NCBI GenBank assembly: GCA_018896985.1
Contig: JAHILQ010000287.1
Coordinates: 1 to 31,764 of the forward strand
Source: Nitrospinota bacterium
GTDB taxonomy: Bacteria > Nitrospirota > Thermodesulfovibrionia > Thermodesulfovibrionales > UBA1546
Direction of reading: 5' to 3'
DNA length: 31,764 bases
Shown piece by piece: positions 1 through 9,712 of this stretch. Position numbers and translations under genes: made by a program. Position 1 is the first letter of the stretch. Each line of letters starts with the position of its first letter. The notes beneath the pieces are model-generated. The model ran no database searches and was not told the origin of the DNA. It worked only from the letters and a program-made list of their open reading frames with translations.

Positions 1-539
1 TCAAAGAAGGAGGACTGGCTGAGTTCTGCTATCCTTCTTGCTCTGTCTAAGGCATTCTGGCGGAGTTCCTGTCGTACGTCATCTGTAAGATTCGGAATCC
101 TTTCATAATCCTCGACAGTTCGAGAATACGTCTCGAAAAAACTTGTGATAACTGATTCAACGATGGCGTTGAGTTTCCCGGTCAAGGTGACAAGTGTCGT
201 TGTCACAAAGGCAGAACCTCTGATTTTCAAATCGGCCTTGTGGGTGTCAACATAGACAACGATGCAAGACGCCAACCCGTCAATAAGTTCTCTCCTGGCA
301 CGGACTGCGCTTGCTTTGGCATCCTCAATTGTCCTTTTCAGTTCCCGAGCACCGGGGGATGTTATTAAATCAAACAAAGCCGGCTCCGGTCCGAAGCCTG
401 CACTTTTCACCTGATCAATCTTGGCAAGAAGTTCCTCGACTGTGAAACTCATCTGCTGTGTTTGTGCAGGAAGGTGACTTTTTGTTGTAACGCTCCCCGT
501 ATTACCCGTTGTTGGCAGGTTAAAATTTGTTTTAGACAT
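1..539 (-). CDS. Hypothetical, mostly helical protein (>=179 aa, runs off the left edge); second gene of the putative sigma54 target operon
   Basis: Not in the ORF track. Manual translation MSKTNFNLPTTGNTGSVTTKSHLPAQTQQMSFTVEELLAKIDQVK...RARRIAELSQSSFF has no stop to position 1. ATG at 539 overlaps the upstream stop (ATGTCTAA) and has AAGGAGG 9 nt upstream. Confidence 0.8.
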   Translation of the reverse strand, partial: MSKTNFNLPTTGNTGSVTTKSHLPAQTQQMSFTVEELLAKIDQVKSAGFGPEPALFDLITSPGARELKRTIEDAKASAVRARRELIDGLASCIVVYVDTHKADLKIRGSAFVTTTLVTLTGKLNAIVESVITSFFETYSRTVEDYERIPNLTDDVRQELRQNALDRARRIAELSQSSFF

Positions 540-1692
540 GGCTCATTTCCTCCTTTACTGTTAGTTGCTGGTTTAATAAGTTATTAAGCTCATTGAGCAT
601 GTAGCTCTTTGAGTTCTCCTCTAACTTGCTCAATGCGATCTGCTCCTGAAGTCCCTTTACTTCGTTTATTATTTGTCTGATAAGCGAGGTATGAAGATTC
701 AGGGCGTCGTTTTCATTAAGGATCTTTTTGGAAGCCTTGAGAGCCGAAAGATAGGCATCCAAAGAAGGAACCAATAACTTTACATAATTGAAGTGCATGT
801 TTTCAGGAAGTGAGGCGGCATTGCGGAGATGTTCTTTCAAGTCAAATGATGAAAGCACTCCGGCATCTGCATTTGAATTTTTCGGCAATATGAAAGCGAC
901 CCCTAAAATACTTATTGGGAAAAGACTGACAAAAGCGGCTGCAAATCCGCCTTTGTAGGTGAAAACCTCTTTTACAATAAACTCGAGCTCCGATTTGTAT
1001 TTCAAACCCTTGTTTTCATCTTTGATGTAGGCTTCCAACTCACTTTGCTTCTTTTTAAGGTCATCATCAAGCACTCTCTTTTGCTTAATTAAATCATCTA
1101 TCTCTCGCTCACGTTTCTCGCGGAATCTTTCTTTGTTCTGTATCTCTACTCTTATGGGTTCTTTGTTTACAGAAATTTTCTCTTTACTCATCCGAGCCAA
1201 CCATTTGTCAATAGCGATGTCATTGCTGTCCCTGTCACGCCTGATTTTGTTTAATTCAGCAGAAACTGTTGCGGCTTGTTCTTTTAGCCCTGATACCGTA
1301 TTTCTCAGAGACTCAACAGATTCAGTTCTTGCGATGTCAACTGTATTTTTCATGGTCTGAAAATCTTTAATTCGGATGTCATAATATACGGATGTAACAG
1401 CAAATGCCTGACATGCTAAAAAGATGATGAGAATGAGATACCTATTAATATGATGCTTCATCGCCCAGAACGAACAGGCAAGTTGAATGCTGGCGAATTC
1501 AAAACAGACTAAAAAAACCGGAAGCATAAAGTTGTGAGCGTCCCCGAGAGGAATCATCAGCATCAGAGTTTCCGTTGACGACGGACTCGCAATGCTTTTG
1601 AGGAAGTTCACAGCAAACGGCAAAACTACAGCAGTATAAGAGACTGTAAAAACCGCTCTCCAGAAAAAATTGCTTAGCTTTCCTAATTGCAT
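532..1692 (-). CDS. Membrane protein: about 3 N-terminal TM helices, long coiled coil, further TM helix, helical tail (DUF4407-like architecture)
   Basis: ORF track 532..1743; start moved to ATG 1692 (MQLGKL), which has GGAGGAGG upstream. Hydrophobic segments AVFTVSYTAVVLPFAVNFL, FMLPVFLVCFEFASIQLACSFWAM, YLILIIFLACQAFAVTSVYY and GGFAAAFVSLFPISILGVAFIL flank a K/E/R-rich heptad region. The family name is an architectural guess. Confidence 0.7.
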   Translation of the reverse strand: MQLGKLSNFFWRAVFTVSYTAVVLPFAVNFLKSIASPSSTETLMLMIPLGDAHNFMLPVFLVCFEFASIQLACSFWAMKHHINRYLILIIFLACQAFAVTSVYYDIRIKDFQTMKNTVDIARTESVESLRNTVSGLKEQAATVSAELNKIRRDRDSNDIAIDKWLARMSKEKISVNKEPIRVEIQNKERFREKREREIDDLIKQKRVLDDDLKKKQSELEAYIKDENKGLKYKSELEFIVKEVFTYKGGFAAAFVSLFPISILGVAFILPKNSNADAGVLSSFDLKEHLRNAASLPENMHFNYVKLLVPSLDAYLSALKASKKILNENDALNLHTSLIRQIINEVKGLQEQIALSKLEENSKSYMLNELNNLLNQQLTVKEEMSHV

Positions 1693-1731
1693 ATTCCCTC
1701 CTCCTTTCTTTTTTGCCTTTACGCTACATAT

Positions 1732-1747
1732 AGAAAGAAACATGCCA
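1732..1747 (-). promoter_or_regulatory. Putative sigma54 (-24/-12) promoter of the 1692 operon
   Basis: Minus strand TGGCATGTTTCTTTCT against consensus TGGCACG-N4-TTGCW: -24 GG exact, T instead of G at -13. Predicted +1 near 1721, about 29 nt before the ATG, with the RBS in between. Confidence 0.65.
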
Positions 1748-1761
1748 GTATCTGGGCAATA

Positions 1762-1786
1762 AAAAACCCTGAAAAATTCAGGGTTT
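1762..1786 (-). terminator. Inverted repeat after the response regulator: possible intrinsic terminator and/or DNA-bending protein site
   Basis: AAAACCCTGAA-AAA-TTCAGGGTTTT, a perfect 11-bp stem; on the minus strand it ends in a T run. Confidence 0.5.
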
Positions 1787-1810
1787 TCATTTTCACTCCG
1801 TTTTTAAAAT

Positions 1811-1843
1811 TCTAAAAAATAGATTTTGTATCTAAATTATAGA
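1811..1843. promoter_or_regulatory. Tandem palindromic upstream activator sites (TCTA-N5-TAGA x2)
   Basis: TCTAAAAAATAGA (1811-1823) and TCTAAATTATAGA (1831-1843), centred about -96 and -116 from the predicted sigma54 start; the same pair recurs at 8457-8490. Confidence 0.7.
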
Positions 1844-1860
1844 AAGGCAACAAAAAGATG

Positions 1861-3384
1861 TTACTTGTTATTCAAGCCATACTCTTTTATTTTGTTATAG
1901 ACGTTTGCTCTACTAACTTCTGAGGTCTTGGCGACTTTGTCAACATTCCAATTATTTTGCTCAAGCAGGTATCTAAGATGTGCTTTCTCTACATCCTTAT
2001 AGGAACATTGTCCTTTGAATTCTACCATTGATATAATTGATTCTTGAGACAACCATTGCTTAAGATCGTCAGCAGTAATCTTATCTCCAGATGACAAAAC
2101 TACAAATCTTTCTATTATATTTTCAAGTTCTCTTACATTTCCGGGCCAGTCATAATTTGTAAGTGCATTTAAAGCATCAGATGCGATGGAGATAGATTTC
2201 AGGTTTTCTTTATTATATTTATCCAGAAAGTGATTCACAAGCAGAGGGATGTCTTCTCTTCTTTCCCTCAAAGGCGGCAGAAATATTGGGACTACATTTA
2301 AGCGGTAATAAAGGTCTTCTCTGAATCTCCCTGCCTTTATTTCTTCCTGTAAATTCTTATTTGTAGCAGCAATAATACGAACATCAATCTTTATAGGTTT
2401 ATTGCTACCAAGTCTCTCGAATTCCTTTTCCTGTAAGACACGAAGAACCTTAGCTTGAGTGGAAGGACTCATATCTCCTGCCTCGTCAAGGAAAATTGTT
2501 CCGTTTTTAGCATACTCAAATTTACCTATTCTTTCTTTTGCAGCACCTGTGAATGCACCTTTCTCATGACCAAAGAGTTCAGACTCAAGGAGTCCTTCAG
2601 GTATAGAGGCGCAGTTGAATTTTATAAACGGCCCCTTTGCCCTCGGGCTCATATAATGTATCGCCTTTGCAATAAGCTCCTTGCCTGTTCCGCTTTCCCC
2701 GCGCAAAAGCACATTTGCTTTTGAAGGCGCCACGCTGTGAACAGCCCCGAAGACCTCCTGCATCCTGTCTGACTGCCCTATGATGTTTTCTTGACCTTTC
2801 AATTCGTTCTTTTTAGGTTCTATTATTTTCAAGATAGCCTCAAATGTCTTGGAGTACAGTTCGTCTCTTGTTTCTTTCTCATGTTCCTCCTGCCACTTTG
2901 CTAAGGCTTCAGCTTGTATAGGAACTTCACTTTGTGGATAAGGTTTTTCTAGAAAGAAATAATCTTTGTTCTCATCCCATTGAAATTCATTTATGTCTCC
3001 ATTCCTGTAAGGCTTTATATGTTCATTATCATTATAATATGTAACAAGCAGAATGGTTACACACTCCTTAAGATATTTATCCCTGTTTACCTCATCTATT
3101 AACCAAAGACCCCCAAAAAGTTCAGCAAACGCTTCATTGCCATCACAATACGGCGGCATATACGCATCAGCGATAACAAGGAGGTGATAATCGTTTGTTT
3201 TCACATATTCTTTTATGTATTGTAAAGCAGTCTCGGCATCCTCACATTCCTCTACAGAATCCCATGTATTTTTTAATAGGTAATGCCCTTCTTGAGGGTC
3301 GCTCAGATACTCCTTATAGAGCTGTCGCTGTTTTGCATCATCATCAACAATCAAAAGTCCAAACTTTTTTGTATGCTTTTTCAC
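1861..3384 (-). CDS. Sigma54-dependent response regulator (NtrC family: REC + AAA+ + Fis-type HTH)
   Basis: REC residues LIVDDD, IADAYMP, LVT, EKP; Walker A GESGTGKE; GAFTGA loop; Walker B IFLDE; [10 protein letters not shown]; [10 protein letters not shown]; C-terminal [21 protein letters not shown] start with AAAGGAGG. Confidence 0.95.
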
Positions 3385-3386
3385 TT

Positions 3387-6300
3387 CTATTCCTCCTTTG
3401 GCACAGGCAGTTTAATAATGAACGCAGCACCTGCCCCATTTTCACTTTTGAAAATCTCAAATTCGCCTCTATAGTGGTTTACTATTTGTTGAATTATATT
3501 GAGCCCGATTCCTGTCCCTGTTCTTTGCTTGGAATTTATCATCAAATCTTTTACTTTATAACCGCTTGGCATACCAATACCATTATCAGAAAATAGAATC
3601 TCATAATTTTTCCCTTCTTTATGGAGGGAGATTTTAATTTCAGGCTTAAAGGTAGTATGGCGTAGTTTTTCATCTATTGCCTTATAAGCATTTGAAAGGA
3701 GGTTTCTAATAATATACTCTATATGCTCACGGTAACCCCTGAAAAGAAATATCTTATCCTTTTCAACCTCAAAAGTGGTATTTACCTGCAAATTTCTAAT
3801 TGGGATATGCCTGTATTCCACAACAGTATCTGCTATAGCTTTTATAGCTTTGTCAAGAGAAAAAACCTCCTCTTCTTTCTCTGTTTCTGAGTAACGAAAA
3901 CTTCTTAGAAAAAAGAACCTGTTTCTGAATGTCTCTTTGATATTGCGAATTTTTATTCTCATTTCATCATGAGTAAGTTTAGGATTGATAAGCTTTGGAA
4001 GTTCATGAGGCTCTTTCAGAAATAGGTTAAACTTATTCTTTGCCTTGGATAATAAAGTCCCTACTTGAGAGAGCAAGTGGCTTACAATCTTTTCCTGAAT
4101 ATTCAATTCTTCCAGTCTAATGTCCCTTTCTATATATTTGTAAACTTCACTAATCCTGGCAGGCGGCAATGGATAGCAGCTTTCAAGAAAATTCAGAATA
4201 TCGTTAAATTTAAAAGGCTCTAAAAATCTCTCTTTTCTCTCAAAGGGGATCCCTATGCTAAACCCATCGGCATGAGATTTAAAAGATACCTTTACACCCT
4301 TGTTATATAGTTCAGGATATTTTTTCTGAAAAATACCTTTAATATCTGAAATTATTATCGCCCGCTCCTCTTGTGAATCTTGAAATTCTGCAATAACTGA
4401 TAAGGAAACAATCTGTCTATCATGTTCCGCAATAAGTTTATACAATCCGCTGATGCCTGATTTCTTAGGAGTATCAATAATTTCAAAAATGAAATCATCA
4501 ACTTTTTTCCATGCAGTTTGTGAGACATAAACATCTTTAATCTCTGGTATATTTGCGATTAAGGTGATATTTTCGCCAAGGCGATTAAGATAAGTTCTTT
4601 GTTTCTCTCTGAGTATCCCGTAGATATCTACTGTCTCAGTGAAAGAAAATGAGATGTCATCCAATTTATCCTTAAGGTATGGAAGTTTTTGCTTTATTAA
4701 AGGAGCAGTTTGAAAAACACTATCAGACTTTTCTTCATCCAATGCCCAGACCAAATCCTCTAACTCTCTGATTTCAATGTAAGTTTTATCTCCCAAGAAC
4801 TCCAAATATGAAAGCATCTCCGAGCCTAAAAATTCCGATAAATATTCCACAGCATCCCCCTGTGCTTTCCTTTTTTTATAGGCTGGCATCAAGATTAGTT
4901 CAACAGCTTCTTTTATAAGGGTCTGCAACTCTCCCAAGCTGGCTGATTGGTAGCATCTGAAGATTATATGCTTCATTAAATACTGGCAGATAGTCTTTCG
5001 GATACCTTTACTTTGATTTTCTGAGAAGACATTTTTAAATTTATCCACAATGTGTTGCGAAAAAATGTTTTCGCCTTTGGCTATTTCAACAATTTCTTTC
5101 GCTATAAAAGAATGGGTAAAAGTGTCTAAATGTTCAATTAATTGACTTTTGCCTGAAAGTATTTTTGCAATCGTATCATCATAGTGTTTTGCCCAGAGAT
5201 AAAGAAGCTCTTTTATAACCTTGCAATCAATGTCTTTATGACTTATGTGGGACTTAGAACCAATATCTGATTTTAAAATGCCTATAAGACATTGTTTAGC
5301 TTTATAAATGTATCCATTTGTCAGAGGCTCCAGAAGATAGGATTTTGCAAGCCCATAGAGTGTGAATCTATTATCAGGCTGTTGATTAAGAATGGACTCA
5401 TAGCACTTAGTTGCCTTTTGCTTTATTTCTGCCTTTTCAGGTTCTGTTAATGTTGACTCCTTTGCCCATTCACGATAGGTTGCACCTATCTGGTCTAATG
5501 CATCTACTCTGCCATTAGAGGCTTTATAAGATCTTTCAAAATATTCAATTGCCTTAAGGAACTCCTTTTTACGCTTGAAGATTTTTCCCAGAAGAAAGAG
5601 TGCATGCGAGTCCTCCCCTTCAATTCTAATTATCCTATTTGCAACTTTTTCAGCATCATCAAATCTGTTCTCTGCAAAAAATATATTAGCTTCTGTCTGG
5701 AGATAGACCCTGTCATTTTGGAGGTTATACTTTCTACATCTTAATAACCTTCGGACATACCCATGGGCCCTTGAATAATAGCCATTCGTTGAATAATGAT
5801 TAGCAAGATAGTGCATCTCATACCGGAAGGTGTATATAGCTTCCTGAATTTTCTCTTCCTTATCTACATCAATTTCTTCTGTAAAGATTTCATCAGGGAT
5901 TGCCTTTTCTATAAAGTCTTCCATCTCTTTAACACAATTTAATTTAATGTGATAATGGCGATATAATCTTTTTCCACTGATAAGCTCCGCAATGGCTCTG
6001 AGATTCCTTAATCTTAAGTAAGGTTCAAGAGAGTCTAATGCATTGATTTTCTGTCGTGTCTTTATAGCTGAATCATATTGCTTCAGGTTTTCATAGATTT
6101 TGGCTGACTTCTCATAATAGTCATAGCTTTCAGGTTTATAAACGCTCTTAGGTAAGAACTTAAATGCCTTATTTGCATGTTGTTCGTCCTGTATACTAAT
6201 ATAGCGGGTTACAATTTCTGTAGCCAGATCAGGAGATGGAGATTTTTCGTATTGGCTTTCAAGTTCACTAACCCTTTCAATTAAAAATTGAGTTGGGACT

Positions 6301-8351
6301 ATCCCTGTATTTTTTCCAATTCTATCGTATATTTCAGTTTGCTCGGGTTTAATTCTAAGAGAGTTGTAATAGGCATCAATAGCAGGGCCTTTATCTTTAA
6401 GCTTCCAGTATAAATCCCCTAACCACTTATAATGTCCATCGGATTTTTCATCGCCTACTATCTCTATCATTTTCTTGACGAGTTCTACAGATTTACTATA
6501 CTGTTCTTTCAATTCGTGCCATTTTGCTATTCTCTGTAGAGATGAAAGTGCTGTAGGATCTATAGCAAGCGCCTTCTCATAATACTCAAATGCGGTAGAA
6601 TCATTATTTAGGGATAGATAACAATCACCTAACCGGCAATAATCCCACACCAATTTCGTTGATAGTTCTATCTTCTTTCCTAACCATTTAATAGCCTCCT
6701 GATAATCTTCAGACTCTTCTTTTAACATCAAAAGCGATATGAGGTGATCAAGTGATCTCAAGCTATCGGGCTGCCGTTCTGTAACAATGTATCTAAAGAT
6801 TTTAATTGCCTCTTCAACATTGCCCTTTTCTTCGTATAGAATTCCGAGACGGAAATATTGAAAGTCCAAATCCCCTAATCTAATCTCAATCATCTTTTTC
6901 TGCCATTCAATGGTGTCTTCATAATAGCCATGTTTTCTGTGGAGGTGAATGAGTTTGTCGTAGGCAGCAGGGTCGCTTTTACTAATCTTCAGGCATTCCA
7001 GATACCACACCTTAGCGCTCAAAAACTCTCCCATCGCATCATGAACATTGCCAAGACCTAAAGCAGCCTGATATTTTTTGGTGTCTGATTTCTCAAAAAG
7101 AATCTCATATTCCTTAATTGCAGATTTATAGTCGCTGCGGAAAAAGTAACATTCGGCTAATCGTTCAACATCCCAATCAAGGTATTTTTTATTAGTATAA
7201 ACCACATCTCCAAGAGCCTTAAAAAGTTCAATGCCTCTTTGATAATCCTCAGATGATGGCTGCTTTTTCTCTCTTTTAAGATTCCCCCTCAAATGATAAG
7301 CATCTGCAAGTGAACTATAAAATTTCGGTCCATTCCTGTCCTGTGGTTTGGTGTTTTTGATTGCTTCTTCACCCAGTAAAATGGCTTTTTCTATATATGC
7401 TTCATAATTCTCATAGTATTTCTTCGCATCATCAAGCAAGTGAAGATTCTGTTCTTTCGCAGCATTGAGGTCGTTCGCCATATCATAAAAGTTAGTAAAA
7501 TTATTGATGTCAGCTTCGCCTCTTTTTATAGATAGAATTTCAGAACACTTTATCCTTAGCAGTGTGCATTCATTTGAGAGTTCAGTCTCTCCCCTTTTTT
7601 TGCGGAATTCTTTGCTAGCGTTTGCCATGGATTTCCTTATTACTCCGTCGAAATATCCTGCATCAGCTTTGATTTGTTTGTCCTTAACCAATTGCCTCAT
7701 TCCATCTAACAAGCTATCTATCAAATCTCTTAAACGGAATAAAATCTCTGCATTATCCATGATTCTTGAGGCTAAATGTTGTGCATCGTTTCCAGTTAAA
7801 ATTTTAAGTTGTTCATAAATAACTTTAATTTCTATCGTTTTGAGTTGCTGGTCAATTATTTCCTTGTAATTGGCATTTTCCGTAAGAGCTTGAAAAACAA
7901 AGGCTGCCCTTTCTACTGGATTTTTAAATTGTTTCTCAGCGAGATGGCGATAGAAGTTACCAATTTTTTCTATAATAACTGGTGTATCCGTAGAAAAATG
8001 CAATGCCATTTTTATACATTCATCTGCTTTTTCGGGGTGTTCTATGTGTTCATAAAAATAAGCTGTATGTATTAGAATATAGTTTTTATCTGCGGCATTT
8101 TGCTGAAGGAGAGATTCAAAAATCGTAAGTCCTATTCCAAGAGATGAAACCTCACGGGTAGACTCAAATGTCCTCATAAAAAATCTTCTAATAGATTTTA
8201 AGAAGTCAAACTCATTATTCTCATACCACCGATTTTTTCTATATTCTTTATGCCAGGATTGAAATTTAGCGAAAGTTTCAGGCGGCAGTCTTTCTTCCAG
8301 AATTTTCTCTATATTCGGGAAACTCATATATTTATTTGGATAGTCAGCCAT
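3387..8351 (-). CDS. Very large soluble TPR-repeat protein with C-terminal HATPase_c (histidine-kinase-like) domain
   Basis: ORF track 3387..8366 (GTG); ATG 8351 fits the predicted +1 better. Many TPR-type helices (e.g. [26 protein letters not shown]). N box [11 protein letters not shown]1 DNGIGM, G2 GTGIGL, terminal GAAFIIKLP. No TM segment seen; the H box is unclear. Confidence 0.85.
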
Positions 8352-8378
8352 AAATAAAGTCACCACATTAATATATTA

Positions 8379-8394
8379 AGCAAATCTAATGCCA
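8379..8394 (-). promoter_or_regulatory. Sigma54 (-24/-12) promoter of the TPR-kinase/response-regulator operon
   Basis: Minus strand TGGCATTAGATTTGCT has both GG and GC at the correct spacing; predicted +1 near 8368. Confidence 0.8.
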
Positions 8395-8456
8395 GCATCC
8401 AGAAATAAAGAACTCTATGAAATATAAGGGTTTTAGATTTATCATTTGTGGAAATT

Positions 8457-8490
8457 TCTAAATATTAGATTTTCTGGTCTAAATTTTAGA
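8457..8490. promoter_or_regulatory. Tandem palindromic upstream activator sites (TCTA-N5-TAGA x2)
   Basis: TCTAAATATTAGA (8457-8469) and TCTAAATTTTAGA (8478-8490), centred about -95 and -116 from the predicted start. Confidence 0.7.
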
Positions 8491-8721
8491 CTTTATTTTT
8501 CTATCTGTAAAAGACCTTACTCAACTCATTTAAGCCTTCTTTAACCCCTATAAACCCACTCAACCATTACCACCAACATCTCCTTTTCCTTCTCAAGTGC
8601 GTGCTTTAAGGCTTTAGCACACATTTTACCGCAGGTCATAACCATAAGGTCTTCGACGAGATAAGTTCCATAGTCCCAAAGTCCAAAAGTGCCATAGAGC
8701 AGAAGTGCAAAATCCGTCTTT

Positions 8722-8829
8722 TTAAAAATCGAAAAGTTTCTCTATCTTCCTCCCTATATCCTTTGCTTCCATGAATGATGTCCCGATAAGCGCTGCGTCA
8801 ATGCCTGCTGATTAGAGACGCAAGATGTA
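8722..8829 (-). pseudogene. trpC: 3' remnant of indole-3-glycerol-phosphate synthase
   Basis: Manual translation YILRL*SAGIDAALIGTSFMEAKDIGRKIEKLFDF* resembles the TrpC C-terminus (D.xRL..AG.DA.L.G.s.M); internal TAA at 8812-8814; no upstream gene body. Confidence 0.65.
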
Positions 8830-8868
8830 AGTACTCCTTAATATCCCCCAACCCCTCTGCCAGTTCCT

Positions 8869-9297
8869 CTACTTATTTTCTGTTTTCAAGTATTTTAATA
8901 TTGCCTCTTCAAAATTCTTAAAATCTCCGATATGCTTTTTAATAATTGTCACTACAATTTCAGTATCAACATCTTCATATCTGTGGACAACAATATTCCT
9001 GAATTTAATCATCTTATCCATAATTGCATATAACTCCGGCTCAATAATATTGTTTTCAAGCAGGACATTAAAAGTGTCGGCATAACTTGTCGGCGGTCTC
9101 ATGTCCTTATCAGAGATGATGTGATGAGCTATGTCTACACATGTCTCTATCATCATCTGTAATGTCCTTTCAATAATTCGCTGAAGTTTCCAATCAGACT
9201 TATACTCCTGAATTGTTATATCAGAAAACTCCTCAATCTGTTTTTGATACGTCTCAAGTTCTGAAATCTTTCTCAGGACAACATTCTTATCAACCAA
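8869..9297 (-). CDS. hepT: HepT-like (DUF86, HEPN) ribonuclease toxin
   Basis: ERTLQMMIETCVDIAHHII, FRNIVVHRY (R-X4-H motif). Start reassigned to TTG 9297 (MVDKNVVLRK), which overlaps the MNT stop and has GGAG 8 nt upstream. Confidence 0.9.
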   Translation of the reverse strand: MVDKNVVLRKISELETYQKQIEEFSDITIQEYKSDWKLQRIIERTLQMMIETCVDIAHHIISDKDMRPPTSYADTFNVLLENNIIEPELYAIMDKMIKFRNIVVHRYEDVDTEIVVTIIKKHIGDFKNFEEAILKYLKTENK

Positions 9298-9712
9298 TTC
9301 CGTATCTCCTTGCAAAAAAGGCGTCTTCTTTGACCTTGAAATCAAAAAATTCCCTTAATGTTACTGATTCGTATATATGACGCCTGAATGGTTCCTTGTC
9401 AATAAGAAGTTTTTTGTTCTGAAGTATTCTGCCGGCAATGCTGAGAGACACGGTATTAAGCATCACAAGGTCAAGTTCTGATGTCCCAAGGGCGTTTGAA
9501 AGCCTGTCAAAAAGCTGGAGCTTATAGCCTGCGAGATTGCCGGTATCTTTCAAGTAGACTGCGATATCTATATCAGAAAGGTCTTTTACCTCTCCTTTGG
9601 TTAAACCGCCAAACAGATATGCAAACACAATATTGTCATCTTGAAGAAGGACATTCTTCAAATTCTGAATTCTTGATAAGATATTTTTGGGCAGCTTTTC
9701 ATACTTTATCAT
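9290..9712 (-). CDS. mntA: MntA-type minimal nucleotidyltransferase antitoxin
   Basis: YLFGGLTKG...SDIDIAV and ELDLVMLN motifs; directly upstream of and overlapping the DUF86 gene. Confidence 0.9.
   Translation of the reverse strand: MIKYEKLPKNILSRIQNLKNVLLQDDNIVFAYLFGGLTKGEVKDLSDIDIAVYLKDTGNLAGYKLQLFDRLSNALGTSELDLVMLNTVSLSIAGRILQNKKLLIDKEPFRRHIYESVTLREFFDFKVKEDAFFARRYGIG

Follow-up and report, generated by a model that had tools for sequence, protein, structure and literature searches.

Two intergenic regions lying 6.6 kb apart on one contig of an uncultured subsurface Nitrospirota bacterium appear to carry the same promoter twice: a −24/−12 element of the sigma-54 type, an eight-base box at a fixed offset from it and a pair of TCTA-N5-TAGA dyads. 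This raises the question of whether the dyads are the enhancer of a locally encoded activator, the operators of some other protein, or the leftover of a duplication. We favour the first answer and assign a probability of about 0.8 to the reading that both regions are sigma-54 promoters whose tandem dyads serve as the enhancer of the local NtrC-type activator, with promoter B providing feedback and promoter A driving a pair of cargo genes.

Gene order and the two promoters

The window analysed here is an entire contig (C239; 31,764 nt) of a 1.85-Mb genome that is about 90% complete and split into 305 contigs. The sequencing runs holding the contig are groundwater metagenomes, and no RNA runs were found among them. 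Close homologues of the window's proteins are labelled Thermodesulfovibrionales.

All genes around both promoters lie on the minus strand. Promoter B precedes a gene for a soluble, 1,654-residue protein with TPR and HATPase_c domains, presumed to be a sensor kinase (3387..8351), which is followed by the gene for a 507-residue NtrC-type regulator (1861..3384); by Pfam, the latter combines an atypical receiver (REC) domain, a sigma-54 AAA+ domain with the GAFTGA loop and an HTH_8 domain. Promoter A precedes cargo gene 1 (532..1692), which encodes a 386-residue membrane protein with a coiled coil, and cargo gene 2 (3..539), which encodes its partner protein, shares 8 nt with gene 1 and is truncated where the contig stops. 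Two start sites had to be corrected. The longest open reading frame of cargo gene 1 begins at 1743, inside the −24 box; its true start is the ATG at 1692, behind GGAGGAGGG, as in all homologues. These are 381–389 residues long, and the related loci L017 and L022 have kept both the start and the ribosome-binding site. For the kinase, the start is the ATG at 8351, conserved with locus L020, whereas the stored call leaves out 58 codons. Full-length partner proteins of 198–199 residues follow the homologue of cargo gene 1 in L014, L015, L016, L018 and L019. Searches with Pfam, PADLOC and Atlas returned nothing on cargo function. A match to Rz-like spanins in PHROGs was rejected; it is weak and would fit any protein with a transmembrane segment and a coiled coil.

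The core promoters were compared with the consensus TGGCAC-N5-TTGCW, in which GG and GC doublets stand ten bases apart, and transcription starts were predicted by counting from the C of the −12 element, taken as −12. Promoter B (8380..8394, minus strand; TGGCAT-N5-TTGC, predicted start ~8368) matches the full consensus with TGGCATTAGATTTGCT; the genome contains 13 strict TGGCAY-N5-TTGC matches, this one included. Promoter A (1733..1747, minus strand; TGGCAT-N5-TTTC, predicted start ~1721) has a perfect −24 box and spacing, and its −12 element reads TC, not GC. The variant TGGCAY-N5-TTTC has 21 matches in the genome, and the core of promoter A is not significant on its own. Within the window, TGGCAT-N5-TTKC was observed twice against 0.23 expected. 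Both pairs of boxes are present on the minus strand where the sequence-only reading had placed them. The genome also encodes RpoN (PF04552, 205.7 bits; a 402-residue open frame on contig C79), about nine sigma-54 activators and IHF-like proteins, one of them IHF-alpha-like. The linkers of A and B contain no match to the IHF consensus at one mismatch or fewer.

The distal and proximal dyads of promoter A, TCTATAATTTAGA (1831..1843) and TCTATTTTTTAGA (1811..1823), are centred at −116 and −96, and those of promoter B, TCTAAAATTTAGA (8478..8490) and TCTAATATTTAGA (8457..8469), at −116 and −95. These centres agree to the base with those proposed earlier. Within each pair the centres are 20–21 bp apart, which corresponds to two helical turns and places both dyads on the same face of the DNA. 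All four centres fall within the ~80–150 bp upstream range expected of sigma-54 enhancers. The window contains exactly four TCTA-N5-TAGA dyads; shuffles that preserve dinucleotides contained 0.71 on average and reached at least four in 1 of 100 cases. Across the genome, 17 such dyads occur against 13.5 expected. In the whole 1.85-Mb genome, pairs less than 60 bp apart are confined to A and B, at either end of the regulator's own operon. A genome-wide scan had been suggested as a way to find further regulon members; the motif pair is not common at random. A relaxed scan (up to two mismatches, gaps of 6–9 nt) found no tandem sites elsewhere in the genome and added only a degenerate third dyad with two mismatches, 9 nt upstream of the B1 dyad of promoter B, which is not conserved. 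The pairing and register of the dyads are far beyond chance; single motifs are not.

A four-way alignment of A and B from both the window and L020 is collinear over ~135 nt, with A and B 59% identical; in the linker, which joins the proximal dyad to the −24 box, they share 57% (35/61). AT-rich composition would yield far less identity, and the alignment thus marks A and B as paralogous copies of one enhancer–promoter unit. The claim that their architecture is equal to within 1 bp is true, and the shared eight-base box and the 1-bp register are best explained by common descent together with a constraint on spacing.

The dyads and the regulator's recognition helix

The regulator has an AAA+ domain (PF00158, 4e-74), with the GAFTGA loop and an AAA lid, and its HTH domain scores 29.6 bits against PF02954 (HTH_8; cut-off 22). 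The receiver domain contains a long insert and gives a weak Pfam match below the cut-off (E = 0.002); five homologues all retain D15, D73, the K-P position and the acidic pocket. Against 25 NCBIfam equivalog models, including NtrC, AtoC, ZraR, GlrR, NifA and NorR, the regulator fell far below every cut-off (ntrC, 354.7 versus 558.6; AtoC, 384 versus 714). The kinase has a HATPase_c domain at residues 1541–1651 (PF02518, 8.2e-15). Its residues ~1370–1540 can be aligned with the part of ordinary kinases from relatives that precedes the ATPase domain. As Pfam found no HisKA domain in the protein, phosphotransfer from the kinase to the regulator is something that we infer. The kinase family is rare, with six true homologues among 5.8 billion proteins and no orthologue in 60 genomes of the same genus, family and order.

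The best kinase homologue (59% protein identity) is encoded at L020, where the accompanying regulator has a 15-residue recognition helix identical to that of the window's regulator. Upstream of the L020 kinase gene, TCTAAAATTTAGA occurs as two dyads, again 8 nt apart, and TGGCATTAAACTTGC comes after them; the distal dyad is identical to that of promoter B, and the proximal dyad differs by one change in the spacer. DNA homology between the two loci begins exactly at the distal dyad (8490), and the sequences farther upstream are unrelated. From there on, the dyads and the core boxes are the best-kept blocks, while the linker is only ~70% identical. On the 3′ side of its regulator gene, L020 has enhancer A, with the distal dyad present and the proximal dyad identical, then a terminator and TGGTAT-N5-CTGC. 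This copy of enhancer A is ~95% identical to the window's throughout and therefore holds no footprint information of its own. L020 is the only independent locus with both the window's helix and its dyads. Among five relatives found by a receiver-domain search, one of them truncated, none has the same helix.

Other helices go with other repeats. The regulators at L017, L019, L021 and L022 have different C-terminal helices, and all four loci have a sigma-54 promoter at the equivalent place. TCTA dyads are absent from L017 and L022, and the repeats are CCTTACA in L019 and ATCGA-N5-TCGAT in L021. The cargo does not go with the dyads: in L020 a radical-SAM gene lies behind enhancer A, and L022, L017 and L019 have the membrane-pair cargo without TCTA dyads. 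Comparison of these loci indicates that the dyads follow the kinase–regulator cassette, not the cargo. The assignment of the motif to the local regulator is well supported by the conservation in L020, by the uniqueness of the dyad pairs in the genome and by the different repeats that accompany other helices. The regulator encoded at 1861–3384 very probably recognises TCTA-N5-TAGA through its HTH_8 domain.

Public genomes and metagenomes were then searched for a dyad pair followed by TGGYAT at the observed spacing. The scan returned 119 loci, one of which (L135) represents the window's own population. Coherent families with the longer dyad GTCTA-N5-TAGAC account for 106 of the 119; most of these are Bacteroidales, with the promoter in front of ABC and MacB/FtsX transporter genes. 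The adjoining Bacteroidales regulators are of the REC-AAA-HTH_8 type, with helices ITRQTLYNKMKK, ending ...RQTLYNKMKK... A second lineage comprises a Candidatus Parabeggiatoa MAG and several environmental contigs, in which GTCTAAATTTTAGAC occurs twice and is followed by TGGTAT-N5-TTGC or TGGCAT-N5-TTGC. L091, the only locus of this lineage that holds an activator, encodes the helix ISKATIFNKLK. The Y/F-N-K triad is absent from the other activators of the window's genome. In these sequence comparisons, the helix [RK]xx[VIL][YF]NK goes with TCTA-N5-TAGA in three lineages, which is an association.

The resemblance to the Bacteroidia FtsX/MacB loci is close in the DNA: both have a tandem (G)TCTA-N5-TAGA(C) core with the same 8-nt gap, and TGGCAT follows 56–58 nt on. 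Their regulators share the R-x-x-L-Y-N-K-M-K helix pattern with the window's regulator. They differ in phylum, sensor and cargo and have a longer dyad, TGTCTAA-N3-TTAGACA; the regulators are only ~40% identical to the window's, over the AAA and HTH parts. A 2025 survey predicted sigma-54 promoters in front of FtsX-type permease genes in Bacteroidia (PMC12316311). We found no description of the enhancer of these promoters in that survey or in the searchable literature, which also gave no match to the window's cassette, its motif or the exact dyad strings.

With these comparisons in hand, two other explanations of the dyads can be weighed. They might be operators of another protein, such as an XRE-type repressor of the cargo or a global factor, instead of the activator's enhancer. 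AT-rich palindromes of 13 bp are typical of operators, the cargo modules of relatives carry an XRE-type HTH gene, and sigma-70-like −10 hexamers overlap the distal dyads, in B as part of TTTACA-17-TAAAAT. However, the dyads travel with the cassette, being present with different cargo in L020 and missing beside the same cargo in L022, L017 and L019; their −95/−116 position and two-turn spacing suit an enhancer rather than an operator, and three lineages pair the motif with one type of HTH_8 helix. We consider an operator role improbable. As candidates in their own right, sigma-70-like promoters over the distal dyads were rejected: they do not exceed shuffled sequence, and the −35 element in B is not conserved in L020.

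The other explanation is that the resemblance of A and B is a duplication leftover, or an accident of AT-rich sequence, and that the dyads have no present function. Common descent does account for part of the shared register, A and B align at 59% over their whole length, and single dyads occur at chance frequency genome-wide. Set against this are the preferential retention of dyads and core boxes within B in the comparison with L020, where the flanks have diverged or are unrelated, the restriction of tandem pairs to this one locus in the genome, and the rarity with which shuffles reach four sites in the window. A functionless leftover is, in our judgement, highly improbable.

The terminator and the −12 element of promoter A

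The third shared element of the earlier proposal, the box AGGGTTTT, has a different origin. On the plus strand it occurs only at 1780–1787 and 8427–8434, at an equal offset from TGGCAT. On the transcribed strand it reads AAAACCCT, and in A it forms the 5′ arm of a 12-bp hairpin (−18.2 kcal/mol, z = −4.2). Folding and a terminator scan both identify this hairpin, with its U-run, as an intrinsic terminator (1757..1790, minus strand), and its location directly 3′ of the regulator's stop codon marks it as the terminator of the kinase–regulator operon. The AAAACCCT box of promoter B (8427..8434, minus strand) is homologous to the terminator arm in A and belongs to no hairpin: the same stretch in B does not fold (z = −1.2). 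Promoter B of L020 also has no hairpin (z = +0.5) and has not kept the 8-mer, which there reads GTAACCCA. The observation of two copies at the same offset stands; the view of the box as an independent element does not, since it is a terminator arm in A, unfolded in B and unconserved in promoter B of L020. The test for a hairpin in B brought up one possible compensatory change (AACCCT/AGAGTT versus AACCCA/TGAGTT), which is too slight to argue from. Known RNA families reached no gathering score within positions 1–9500, and the sub-threshold matches all overlap the terminator hairpin region.

In A, the terminator separates the enhancer from the core promoter. The order of enhancer, terminator and core promoter is also found at L021, with a hairpin of unrelated sequence. 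The recurrence of this layout in a distant locus speaks for a structural role, in which the terminator would insulate the cargo from read-through.

Promoter A is collinear base for base with TGGCATTTTACTTGC of L022, in which the −12 element is TTGC. The GC at −12 is kept in all the related promoters: CTGC in promoter A of L020, TTGC in L022 and L017, TCGC in L019, and ATGC in L014 and L021. The T at 1734 is therefore a derived, single G-to-T change. A short deletion in the −12 element was ruled out by the collinear L022 alignment, which shows one G/T difference. Contigs from three other groundwater runs, which may sample one population, match positions 1487–2215 without a difference, so an assembly error does not explain the T.

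The −24 box dominates recognition of sigma-54 promoters, and the GC at −12 governs the stability of the closed complex and the lock that makes the promoter dependent on its activator (PMC5095919). The G-to-T change could accordingly weaken promoter A or make it leaky. It probably alters the strength or the tightness of A, in a direction that is unreadable from sequence. The sequence-only reading had suggested, from the two −12 elements, a threshold order, with autoregulation first and effectors later. Such an order is possible. A different outcome would follow if A were a decayed promoter, in which the −12 change stops closed-complex formation: the cargo would be silent or under another signal, only B would work and there would be no threshold order. 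The window's A is alone in reading TTTC where six related promoters have GC, matches to TGGCAY-N5-TTTC are not rare (21 in the genome), and the stability of closed complexes depends in large part on the −12 element (PMC5095919). On the other hand, the dominant −24 box of A, its spacing, both dyads and the terminator are all perfect, the T is fixed in the contigs from three other runs, the cargo reading frames are intact, and many natural promoters among the Bacteroidales relatives of this architecture also lack GC, reading CTGT. We regard the decay of A as unlikely.

Circuit, cassette and known systems

The core elements, their spacing and the paired dyads support the reading of A and B as putative sigma-54 promoters with an NtrC-type tandem enhancer, and they support promoter B as the element that would make the kinase–regulator operon autoregulated. 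In the circuit that we favour, the TPR/HATPase_c protein would phosphorylate Asp73 of the regulator, by analogy with the NtrC family. Regulator dimers would bind both dyads on one face of the helix through their HTH_8 domains and assemble into an active AAA+ hexamer. The hexamer would reach the sigma-54 holoenzyme by looping out the 62–63-nt linker, which is rich in A/T tracts, and would open the promoter at the expense of ATP, as in the general mechanism of the NtrC family (PMC7057263). Promoter B would then drive the kinase–regulator operon in a positive feedback loop, and promoter A would switch on the two cargo proteins. Because the terminator would block read-through from the regulator operon, expression of the cargo would depend on activation alone.

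The boundaries of homology place a breakpoint at the core promoter. Between the window and L020, identity is ~95% over the stretch that begins where the regulator gene ends and closes with the CTGG of the −24 box; past that point there is none. The window and L022 show the converse, with no identity before TACTGGCAT and ~85% from TACTGGCAT onward; their cassettes are unrelated, and the L022 cargo is 85% identical to that of the window. As judged from these alignments, the core promoter is the joint between regulatory cassette and cargo. The cargo behind related cassettes is varied and includes the membrane pair as well as radical-SAM or SPASM enzymes with small open reading frames. Tentatively, the unit that runs from enhancer B and promoter B through the TPR kinase and the activator to enhancer A, the terminator and the −24 box might be a portable sensor–amplifier cassette, recombined onto different cargo operons with the sigma-54 core as the joint; we hold this to be possible.

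The closest textbook parallel is the glnALG operon of enteric bacteria, in which NtrB and NtrC act on glnAp2 through two strong dimer sites ~100–140 bp upstream. As in that system, a kinase and a REC-AAA-HTH_8 activator are encoded together, two same-face sites precede a −24/−12 promoter, the activator's own operon would be subject to positive feedback, and a second, remote promoter uses the same sites. The sigma-70-like hexamers over the distal dyad of B recall the glnAp1/p2 arrangement. Unlike NtrC, the regulator has TCTA-N5-TAGA as its predicted motif, not the NtrC site, and a receiver domain with a long insert; in place of NtrB there is a 1,654-residue soluble TPR protein without a recognisable HisKA domain, and the cargo is not linked to nitrogen.

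Regulon reconstructions of enhancer-binding proteins in Desulfovibrio vulgaris (PMC4641369) and Clostridiales (PMC6615313) have drawn the same kind of inference in other phyla and for other regulators, combining a local activator with a conserved sigma-54 promoter and a conserved upstream palindrome, with autoregulated cases among those described. NorR at norVW likewise uses several enhancer dyads upstream of a sigma-54 promoter; it is a one-component sensor and needs three enhancer sites to build its hexamer (PMC2831303), whereas the window has two clear dyads.

In this reading, the locus is an ordinary NtrC-type autoregulated sigma-54 circuit with a new motif and a rare cassette. Its logic is that of the textbook and will not surprise specialists. 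The analysis provides a precise, predicted binding motif for one activator of an uncultured Nitrospirota bacterium from the subsurface, a predicted regulon of two promoters under it and corrected start sites for both downstream genes. It also shows how a terminator placed inside the looping region of a sigma-54 promoter could insulate the cargo. The wider value lies in the motif–helix pairing, which recurs in gut Bacteroidales in front of MacB/FtsX genes, and in the clean breakpoints at the −24 box. If the portable cassette is real and the motif–helix rule is transferable, sigma-54 circuits would be rewired through the swapping of modules at the level of the promoter.

Cassette, cargo and the giant TPR-HATPase family

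The giant TPR-HATPase protein (window 3387–8351) belongs to a very rare family: a search of 5.8 billion proteins yielded six homologues. Members of the family are encoded in the window, in the homologous loci L019, L020 and L021, and on the contig of P0025. An activator gene comes after the giant gene in every case, and its product has the same unusual receiver domain throughout. At several of these loci, a radical-SAM or SPASM enzyme makes up the cargo together with ORFs of 48–75 aa, a combination that looks like a peptide-modification module. Small genes with similarity to the C-terminal domain of RNA polymerase alpha occur upstream of the TPR gene in L019 (1581–1802) and near the cargo pair in L015 (1953–2147); the window has no counterpart of this small gene.

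The −24 box of the sigma-54 promoter forms the exact joint between cassette and cargo (window 1728–1760; L020:8430–8470; L022:2040–2060). By sequence comparison, L020, which holds the closest kinase relative, has everything upstream of CTGG in common with the window, while its cargo is radical-SAM. In L022, everything from TACTGGCAT onward is common to the window, and the regulator and enhancer are unrelated. If the longest ORF is taken, the cargo gene starts at 1743, within the −24 box; its conserved start lies at 1692 (window 1692–1743). For the kinase, we found a conserved ATG at 8351; the stored gene call is 58 codons shorter (window 8177–8351).

Additional signals in promoter regions A and B

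The distal dyads of the window contain the −10 hexamers of two sigma-70-like promoters on the minus strand, TTTACA-17-TAAAAT (8483–8511) and GTAACA-17-TATAAT (1836–1864), which show no excess over shuffles. This arrangement resembles glnAp1, which lies under NtrC sites, and the predicted promoters overlapping the distal dyads could provide basal expression. The promoter B linker also carries an imperfect inverted repeat, AACCCT...AGAGTT (window 8397–8434), for which prediction gives no stable hairpin. Its counterpart in L020 (1718–1745) reads AACCCA...TGAGTT, and the pair may represent one compensatory change.

Related dyads in other lineages

A pattern scan identified Bacteroidales-type dyad loci among L025–L134 (e.g. 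L056:3605–3700, L043:7815–7910 and L053:1279–1374). Two TGTCTAA-N3-TTAGACA dyads are located 56–58 nt upstream of TGGCAT-N5-CTGC or CTGT in numerous Bacteroidales genomes and gut metagenomes. Downstream of these units stand ABC and MacB/FtsX transporter genes. The adjoining REC-AAA-HTH_8 regulators have the recognition-helix pattern R-x-x-L-Y-N-K-M-K in common with the window's regulator.

In a second lineage, GTCTAAATTTTAGAC is present twice upstream of a sigma-54 box (L048, L067, L084, L091, L118, L129 and L136). One member is a Candidatus Parabeggiatoa MAG. In L091, frameshifts split the activator adjoining the dyads, and its terminal helix is ISKATIFNKLK.

Genomic neighbourhood and possible mobility

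Directly upstream of the cassette, overlapping minus-strand genes (window 8869–9712) encode a HepT-like RNase and an MNT-type nucleotidyltransferase, a toxin–antitoxin-type pair. The ~380 bp between this pair and enhancer B contain no convincing ORF. At one distant locus, L016, a 1014-aa TraG/VirD4/HerA-like ATPase (4633–7677) is encoded after the homologues of the cargo pair, a neighbour which hints that this pair can be part of a module linked to mobility or transfer. The G+C content is 38% in the whole window and 42.5% in the genome, and no kinase orthologue was found among 60 related genomes. The low G+C and the absence of kinase orthologues in these relatives each fit the window being an acquired accessory region.
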